Shown here piece after piece: positions 2,674-2,738 of a stretch of 26,061 nucleotides of DNA. Below the pieces are notes generated by a model. It was not told the DNA's origin and made no database searches. It saw only the letters and a program-made list of their open reading frames with translations. Both the position numbers and the translations under genes were made by a program. Source of the DNA: Promethearchaeota archaeon (GTDB lineage: Archaea > Asgardarchaeota > Thorarchaeia > Thorarchaeales > Thorarchaeaceae); contig JALVPN010000190.1 of assembly GCA_027031765.1 (NCBI GenBank), forward strand, positions 1 through 26,061. The letters are read 5' to 3'. Numbering within the stretch: position 1 is the stretch's first letter; every line of letters begins with the position of its first letter.

Positions 2674-2728
2674 CTCCATCTGAAAACGGGGGCAGTTCCA
2701 CTGGAACAGGTCTGCTTCCACTGGAACA
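2674..2728. promoter_or_regulatory. Three ORB-like (origin recognition box) elements upstream of cdc6
   Basis: TCCAnnnGAA cores at 2675, 2697 and 2717. Exact 13-bp repeat TTCCACTGGAACA at 2696-2708 and 2716-2728 reads TGTTCCAGTGGAA on the minus strand. The first box, CTCCATCTGAAAACGGGGG, carries a G-string. Confidence 0.75.
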
Positions 2729-2738
2729 CCTATTAAGG
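2729..2738. promoter_or_regulatory. Putative TATA box usable on both strands (cdc6 / METTL5 divergent promoter)
   Basis: CCTATTAAGG reads TATTAA on + and TTAATA on -; it is the main AT patch in the 166-bp divergent gap. Confidence 0.45.

Follow-up and report, generated by a model that had tools for sequence, protein, structure and literature searches.

Origin-type boxes in the core promoter of an Asgard orc1-1/cdc6 gene as a candidate operator for initiator autorepression, away from the probable replication origin

Introduction

Three ORB-type boxes lie in the short gap upstream of a cdc6 initiator gene in an archaeon of the Thorarchaeaceae (assembly GCA_027031765.1). The question raised by this locus is whether such boxes mark a site where replication starts or a site through which the initiator would control its own synthesis. 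The original prediction for this DNA left both readings side by side, Cdc6 autorepression or an unusually compact origin. The window, that is, the whole stretch of DNA analyzed, is an entire contig of 26 kb (C190). The draft genome to which it belongs amounts to 2.95 Mb in 229 contigs, at 59% GC, and this stretch is present in one hydrothermal-vent metagenome DNA run. Positions given without a prefix are those of the window, and two further contigs of the same genome are named C40 and C110.

Results

The initiator gene and its surroundings

The gene in question, cdc6-1 (Table 1), starts at an ATG and not at the GTG found upstream in the raw open reading frame. Its product carries the Pfam domains Cdc6_C, Cdc6_lid, and AAA, and its best solved relatives are Orc1-1 from Sulfolobus (2qby_A, E 2e-107) and ORC1 from Aeropyrum (2v1u_A). 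By these sequence matches, the protein is an Orc1-1/ORC1-type initiator, kin of the structures solved with bound ORB DNA. Orthologues with 81-89% identity are found in the genomes of the Thor family (MAGs labelled Thorarchaeota or Promethearchaeota). The genome also encodes a second paralogue, Cdc6-2 (C40:159,928-161,052), which is 32% identical to Cdc6-1 and has 1fnn as the nearest solved structure. Inspection of the region upstream of cdc6-2 revealed no boxes of the type present at the cdc6-1 promoter.

The neighbor on the other side of the boxes is a divergent class-I methyltransferase gene, and the gap between the two genes is 166 bp, with a GC content of about 54%. A search of this gap for an AT-rich stretch found none, in agreement with the original description of a gap devoid of an extended AT-rich unwinding element. 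The first 8875 nucleotides of the window make up a replication-gene island (DP1, cdc6-1, PCNA, PriS, and Gins51), interspersed with the methyltransferase, a protein with an exosome ECR1_N domain, and an RNase III-like protein. ORB-type boxes are absent from the other promoters of this island (window 1-8875). Further along the contig, a heterodisulfide-reductase-like cluster (9439-16653) includes 4Fe-4S proteins, a CCG domain, an FAD oxidoreductase, and an MvhD/FlpD fusion; downstream of it lies the gene of a 771-aa protein with ferredoxin motifs and weak AlkZ-like and MarR-like matches.

Table 1. Features of the cdc6-1 locus and of the candidate origin on contig C40
Feature	Position	Strand	Remarks
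PolD small subunit DP1	1-1410		convergent with cdc6-1
cdc6-1/orc1-1 initiator gene	1413..2663	-	416 aa, ATG at 2663; Pfam and structure relatives
GGAG, putative Shine-Dalgarno	2674..2677	-	10 nt before ATG; overlaps box 1 TCCA half-site
Box 1, ORB-like	2675..2692	+	TCCATCTGAAAAC + GGGGG; antisense to cdc6, G-string toward mini-ORBs
Box 2, mini-ORB	2696..2708	.	TTCCACTGGAACA (GTTCCAGTGGAAC on gene strand); exact repeat; covers predicted transcript start region
Box 3, mini-ORB	2716..2728	.	TTCCACTGGAACA; exact repeat; ends 3 nt downstream of TATA element
TATA-like element TTAATA	2732..2737	-	CTTTAT in most relatives; position and sequence conserved, 48 Thor loci
GTAATAC heptad	2743..2749	-	just upstream of TATA/BRE; nearly invariant in Thor family
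Divergent class-I methyltransferase gene	2830..3468	+	TTG start 2830; Pfam methyltransferase domains
PCNA	5963-6778
Primase small subunit (PriS)	6871-8256
Gins51	8240-8875
Candidate origin ORB-DUE-ORB	C40:133,984-134,227 (locus L243:7984-8227)		two inverted full ORBs, outward G-strings

A unique array of three boxes between the TATA-like element and the start codon

Matches to TCCAnnnGAA occur on the + strand at 2675, 2697, and 2717, with a spacing of 22 and 20 bp, and all the coordinates of the original prediction are right. The same holds for its account of two exact, near-palindromic 13-bp repeats (TTCCACTGGAACA at both 2696-2708 and 2716-2728), for the GGGGG tail of one box, which is real, and for the placement of the whole set between the cdc6 TATA element (TTAATA, 2732-2737) and the ATG at 2663. 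Boxes 2 and 3 follow the scheme TTCCA-N-TGGAA. Box 1 (TCCATCTGAA) differs by one mismatch from the TCCAnnGGAA core and corresponds to a degenerate ORB, with the GGGGG run (2688-2692) located 3' of it on the + strand. This run is assigned to box 1 and not to box 2 because the origin ORBs of the family show the pattern TCCAgTGGAAAYnnnGGGG; box 1 is thus the ORB-like member of the array, and boxes 2 and 3 are mini-ORBs. The array spans 54 bp. The 86 nt that precede the ATG read, on the gene strand, GTAATAC-GTAGCC-TTAATA-GGT-GTTCCAGTGGAAG-CAGACCT-GTTCCAGTGGAAC-TG-CCCCC-GTTTTCAGATGGAG-TTGGACCCGC-ATG.

The loose pattern TCCAnnnGAA is not significant by itself, being found 6 times in the window against 4.0 expected. 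The significance of the array comes instead from its exact repeats, its clustering, and its conservation. The 12-mer TTCCACTGGAAC has two copies in the 2.95-Mb draft, both of them here. Moreover, this is the sole group in the genome with at least three TCCAnnGGAA sites (at most one mismatch) within 100 bp, for which about 0.44 would be expected, and the only pair of exact TCCAnnGGAA sites within 60 bp.

From the center of the TATA-like element, near 2734.5, transcription is predicted to start at about 2708-2712. Relative to this predicted start, box 3 would occupy approximately -6 to -18, box 2 +2 to +14, and the ORB-like box +18 to +35, where it overlaps the GGAG motif. Box 3 is therefore probably upstream of the transcript start. 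The GGAG is likely the ribosome-binding site, and the ATGGAG that contains it is invariant in an alignment of 11 genera. Conserved sites of initiator type overlap the core promoter of the initiator's own gene, from 3 nt after the TATA-like element through to the putative ribosome-binding site.

In other Asgard families, the GTAATAC heptad can still be recognized, as CGTAATA. The genome has few copies of GTAWTAC, 96 in all, and 14 of them are concentrated at 120-140 kb on C40, beside the candidate origin described below. The heptad may represent a second regulatory input, common to the origin flank and the initiator promoter.

The array is conserved upstream of cdc6-1 in the Thor family

A comparison of the regions upstream of cdc6-1 included 56 Thor loci, 48 of them non-identical, from at least 15 genera. 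The order of elements is the same in all: GTAATAC, the TATA-like CTTTAT, an array of TCCA/GGAA boxes, ..CC..TTCnnATGGAG, and the start codon. Typically, two to four TCCAnnGGAA boxes are followed by an antisense ORB-like box before the start codon. At least one exact TCCAnnGGAA is located between the GTAATAC/TATA anchor and the start in 44 of the 48 loci, and at least two boxes with no more than one mismatch in 39. The array is variable in detail, and an exact box is missing from the other 4 loci. In many genera, it opens with TCCA half-sites every 9 bp, and in several a full ORB on the opposite strand (e.g. TCCATAGGAAACGGGGGT and TCCATTTGAAACAGGGGT) precedes the start codon. In the 11-genus alignment, the invariant columns correspond exactly to GTAATAC, the TA within the TATA element, TCCA, GGAA, CC, and TTC..TGGAG. 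Conservation upstream of orthologous cdc6 genes was one of the checks proposed with the original prediction, and the layout holds in 44-48 of the 48 non-identical Thor loci.

The placement of the boxes is also constrained. Counted from the G of GTAATAC, the first TCCA starts 21-30 nt downstream, which puts it directly after the TATA element. The distance between adjacent boxes is 11 bp in 26 cases and 20-22 bp in 18, that is, one or two helical turns. This spacing agrees with the helical phasing first suggested for the three boxes. In 53 Thor loci, the methyltransferase gene is the divergent neighbor of cdc6-1, across a gap of 129-433 bp (median 205 bp).

A different arrangement is found in other Asgard families. 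There, cdc6-1 adjoins an AT-rich gap (24-29% GC) of about 500 bp, in which many TTCACA repeats accompany a perfect full ORB located at about -230, and in some of these families an ORB-like box is present just before the cdc6-1 start codon as well. Since in these families cdc6-1 lies beside an AT-rich region with a full ORB, it seems from the comparison that the Thor family split cdc6-1 from the origin, keeping and multiplying the ORB-type boxes of the promoter.

The boxes share the dyad of the family's origin ORBs

A matrix was built from 46 origin ORBs of relatives only, leaving out the present genome, and was scanned genome-wide. The consensus of these origin ORBs is tTTCCAgTGGAAATaAAGGGGT. 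With the 22-nt matrix for full ORBs, the top matches are the two origin ORBs of C40, a site at C40:138,581, and one site on C110, and the scores fall off clearly after these. With the 14-nt matrix of the dyad, box 3 ranks 8th and box 2 ranks 13th among all positions of the genome. The dyad core TCCA-N2/3-GGAA(A/C) is present exactly in boxes 2 and 3 (TCCACTGGAA) and with one mismatch in box 1. Boxes 2 and 3 have no G-string, like known mini-ORBs, and correspond to mini-ORBs whose dyad is common to the origin sites. In box 1, the GGGGG follows GAAA after 2 nt, versus 4 in the origin consensus, and its score in the fixed-spacing 22-nt matrix is below 6 bits because of the dyad mismatch together with the G-string being 2 nt closer. 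The boxes are then ORB-like as originally proposed, judging from a dyad that matches the origin ORBs of the family and from a gene that encodes an initiator of Orc1-1 type.

The replication origin most likely lies on another contig

The candidate for the real replication origin is on C40, and the evidence places it most likely there and not at the cdc6-1 boxes. Its two inverted full ORBs (Table 1) contain a 23-nt inverted repeat (ACCCCTCTGTTTCGTGTGGAACT / AGTTCCACTCGAAACAATGGGGT; C40:134,007-134,166) around a 114-nt spacer of 38-42% GC, and the pair is bracketed by two copies of the palindrome GAACACGTGTTC. Apart from this bracket, the anatomy is that of a textbook archaeal origin. Under a strict pattern of dyad plus GGGG, there are two full ORBs in the whole genome. 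Of 26 relatives, 22 have the same inverted ORB pair, about 140 bp apart, in front of the same saccharopine-dehydrogenase-like gene. No cdc6 gene adjoins the C40 origin; cdc6-2 is about 26 kb away, a linkage kept in relatives. In the relatives with all the genes on one contig, the distance from this type of origin to cdc6-1 is 63-156 kb. An overlap between the ends of C190 and C40 was sought and none was found, and the relative position of the two contigs follows from synteny in relatives. Across the relatives, the lowest GC fraction in 60 bp has a median of 0.33 upstream of cdc6-1 versus 0.22 at the C40-type origin. Inverted ORBs flanking a spacer were not found at cdc6-1, where the three boxes are one-sided and in the same register.

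Along C40, the GC skew lies above zero up to about 125 kb and below zero between about 130 and 179 kb. This is the sole switch of skew among the eight longest contigs, and it falls at about 125-135 kb, near the ORB-DUE-ORB locus. It is not due to gene orientation, since it is seen at third codon positions in genes of either strand. The other seven long contigs are largely of one sign, four being uniform and three having one or two weak opposite windows. On C190, the third-position skew of the + strand is -0.12 and -0.14 to the left of the boxes, where the contig has only 2.6 kb, and to the right it is negative in 11 of the 12 + strand genes between 2830 and 18431, mostly from -0.03 to -0.17. 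With the same sign on both sides, there is no switch at cdc6-1, which is the outcome of the GC-skew check suggested for this contig (with 2.6 kb on the left side). The polarity on C40 runs opposite to the bacterial convention, the + strand being G-rich on the left and C-rich on the right. For this reason, the skew is taken to mark a replichore boundary, and the identification of this boundary as an origin comes from its ORB-DUE-ORB anatomy. If replication starts at this locus, this lineage would have a C-rich leading strand. A cumulative skew of the "chromosome" record CP070658.1 was discarded: its 2,579,137 bp correspond to about 400 contigs joined by 100-N spacers, the contig order is not established, and hence long-distance skew or synteny was not taken from this record.

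Two other sites of the genome have full ORBs of note. One is a 580-bp gap at C40:138,305-138,888 (locus L243:12305-12888), with the best-scoring full ORB of the genome (GTTCCACTGGAAACAGGGGGGT) among repeats of the TGTTCACA type; the TTCACA repeats of this gap also flank the full ORB of cdc6-1 in other Asgard families (L025 and L029). The second, at C110:59,852-60,026 (locus L246:7852-8026), combines the GAACACGTGTTC palindrome, an AT-rich TATA-like stretch, and the full ORB TCCATTGGAAACCATGGGGT, which is directly before the ATG of a 137-aa protein without a Pfam family. The same layout, together with a 42%-identical protein, recurs in the Thor genome CP070658.1 at about 1,698,050-1,698,240. 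No switch of skew is seen at the C110 ORB site, which may be a second Orc1-controlled promoter.

Discussion

An operator for initiator autorepression as the preferred reading

The unique cluster, the dyad match to origin ORBs, and the Orc1-1-type product suggest that the three boxes form an operator for Orc1 autorepression in the core promoter and leader of cdc6-1, analogous to the DnaA boxes of the dnaA promoter. The conserved layout from TATA to start codon, a gap too small for an origin (given its median of 205 bp in 53 loci), and the separate origin on C40 point in the same direction. We give this reading a probability of roughly 0.6. Of the two options in the original prediction, autorepression is the one that fits all the sequence evidence (the position between TATA and ATG, the conservation in 48 loci, and the phasing), from which we infer Orc1-1 binding, cooperativity, and repression at the boxes.

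In the proposed mechanism, the operator would consist of the ORB-like box by the ribosome-binding site and the two mini-ORBs directly downstream of the TATA element. When Orc1-1 is scarce, only the high-affinity full ORBs of the distant origin would be occupied. As its level rises, Orc1-1 would nucleate at the ORB-like box and then fill the helically phased mini-ORBs cooperatively, covering roughly -18 to +35 around the predicted transcript start. Recruitment of RNA polymerase or formation of the open complex would be blocked in this way, generating a negative feedback on the supply of initiator. In archaea, recruitment of the polymerase is blocked by factors that bind downstream of the TATA box, as exemplified by the repressors MDR1, Phr, and LrpA. 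Also, the dosage and timing of Orc1-1 matter in Sulfolobus, where constitutive expression leads to over-replication (PMC3607249).

Alternative readings of the boxes

That the boxes serve as a compact or secondary origin, where Orc1 bound to the three of them loads MCM and replication starts within the 166-bp gap, would agree with the usual archaeal arrangement of ORB-type boxes beside the initiator gene, with the AT-rich region of about 500 bp and its perfect full ORB next to cdc6-1 in other Asgard families, and with the location of cdc6-1 in an island of genes for DP1, PCNA, PriS, and Gins51. However, the gap has about 54% GC, with neither an unwinding element nor an inverted ORB pair around a spacer, it measures 129-433 bp across 53 loci while the boxes stay tied to the TATA box, and the third-position GC skew is negative on either side of them, in a genome where the skew is informative, as it switches beside the ORB-DUE-ORB locus on C40. 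The idea of an unusually compact origin is thus very improbable, given no unwinding element, no skew switch, and a complete ORB-DUE-ORB origin with a switch elsewhere. A role in titration or timing is a different matter: the array would be a datA-like locus that soaks up Orc1 and delays re-initiation, any effect on transcription being secondary. A cluster of several sites away from the origin recalls the ORB-rich region of cdc6E in Haloarcula hispanica (PMC3936714). Nonetheless, three to five sites are few for a sink, and their strict placement between TATA and start in 48 loci suits a promoter operator better, making a primary function of this kind quite unlikely. Titration and autorepression are compatible, and the boxes may possibly do both, the two roles not being mutually exclusive.

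The identity of the bound protein and the nucleic acid on which the boxes act can be weighed in the same manner. The binder could be the second Cdc6 paralogue or an unrelated factor, just as the role could be one of titration or timing; with Cdc6-2 or an unrelated winged-helix protein on the boxes, the outcome would be cross-regulation and not autoregulation. In line with this, the genome has a 1fnn-type paralogue (32% identical) that is linked to the origin in relatives, several Orc1 paralogues of Sulfolobus bind overlapping origin sites (PMC3607249), and the conserved GTAATAC heptad means at least one further input at the promoter. Against it, the dyad is that of the origin ORBs, which are known targets of Orc1-1/ORC1-type proteins, and it is Cdc6-1, not Cdc6-2, that is closest to these; we regard another binder as unlikely. 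Still less credible, and in fact the least probable of these explanations, is a structured 5' leader RNA in which hairpins of the palindromic boxes would govern translation or stability. Each box is near-palindromic and the two copies can pair (MFE -29.7 kcal/mol for 2640-2730), but the fold is no better than that of shuffled sequences (z = +0.38 for the predicted leader and -1.25 with both boxes transcribed), and the consensus structure of 11 genera has 5 pairs and -2.2 kcal/mol, with no compensatory change. Among relatives, the boxes differ in number and arrangement (direct TCCA repeats at 9-bp intervals are one form), yet the words TCCA and GGAA persist, and box 3 is probably upstream of the transcript start. 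The RNA-structure reading was rejected on account of this shuffle-level folding and the lack of covariation. A more elaborate role, going beyond repression, is conceivable for a piece of origin-type DNA (one ORB plus mini-ORBs) retained in the promoter after gene and origin parted. As an Orc1·ATP sensor or titration site, or as a helicase-loading site that lacks a DUE, it would link the synthesis of the initiator to the firing of the origin, with the single copy of the GTAATAC heptad as a second input shared with the origin flank; we hold this to be doubtful.

Relation to known systems

Autorepression of cdc6-1 by its own product would have its closest bacterial parallel in Escherichia coli, where the dnaA promoter contains DnaA boxes through which DnaA regulates its own expression (Braun et al. 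1985, as cited in PMC3936714). In both systems, origin-type sites of the initiator are located in its own promoter, away from the origin, the feedback being a proposed one here. The components are unrelated, with Orc1/Cdc6 in place of DnaA and TBP/TFB in place of sigma-70, and the effect on expression is, for the archaeon, the one that we propose. Among archaea, Orc1-2 of Saccharolobus islandicus regulates its own gene by way of the promoter's DDRE motif, ANTTTC (PMC12490963), and an Orc1-2 ChIP signal is present at the orc1-2 promoter (PMC3607249). Here too, a protein of the archaeal Orc1/Cdc6 family would act on its own promoter. However, Orc1-2 is a non-initiator regulator of the DNA-damage response with a 6-bp motif, whereas the present case concerns an Orc1-1-type initiator and ORB/mini-ORB dyads like those of the origin. 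In H. hispanica, oriC2 is under the negative control of an ORB-rich region that lies downstream of cdc6E, "likely via Cdc6E-titrating" (PMC3936714). Both cases have a cluster of ORBs outside the origin proper, with negative control reported in Haloarcula and proposed here, but the haloarchaeal region is downstream of the gene and is proposed to work by titration and not as a promoter operator.

The origins of Thermococcales and Methanothermobacter, associated with the names of Matsunaga et al. and of Capaldi and Berger (2004), reportedly have arrays of ORBs and mini-ORBs upstream of cdc6. They share with the Thor array the core word TTCCAGTGGAA, the mixture of full ORBs with 13-bp mini-ORBs, and the position upstream of the initiator gene. 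Those arrays belong to an origin of several hundred base pairs with an AT-rich unwinding element. Unlike them, the Thor array is 54 bp long, sits in the core promoter without an unwinding element, and has the origin 63-156 kb away.

Within the literature searched, no Asgard cis elements for the initiation or control of replication were found beyond GC-skew plots (PMC11291895, PMC9246712). In the archaeal literature searched, ORB-mediated autoregulation of an initiator Orc1 had as its only counterparts Orc1-2 with its DDRE motif and the H. hispanica ORB-rich region, and no ORB/mini-ORB operator standing apart from the origin was found on any Orc1-1-type initiator gene. Both initiator autoregulation and ORB elements, as such, are already known.

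Implications for the Thor family

If the autorepression reading is true, the role of sequence-specific repressor of its own gene, played by DnaA in bacteria, would extend to an Orc1-type initiator, which is the ancestor-like form of eukaryotic Orc1/Cdc6. The model suggests, moreover, that origin-adjacent ORBs could be re-used as an operator after the separation of gene and origin. Finally, the locus and the unlinked ORB-DUE-ORB origin would together offer a concrete and cheaply testable model for an uncultured lineage.
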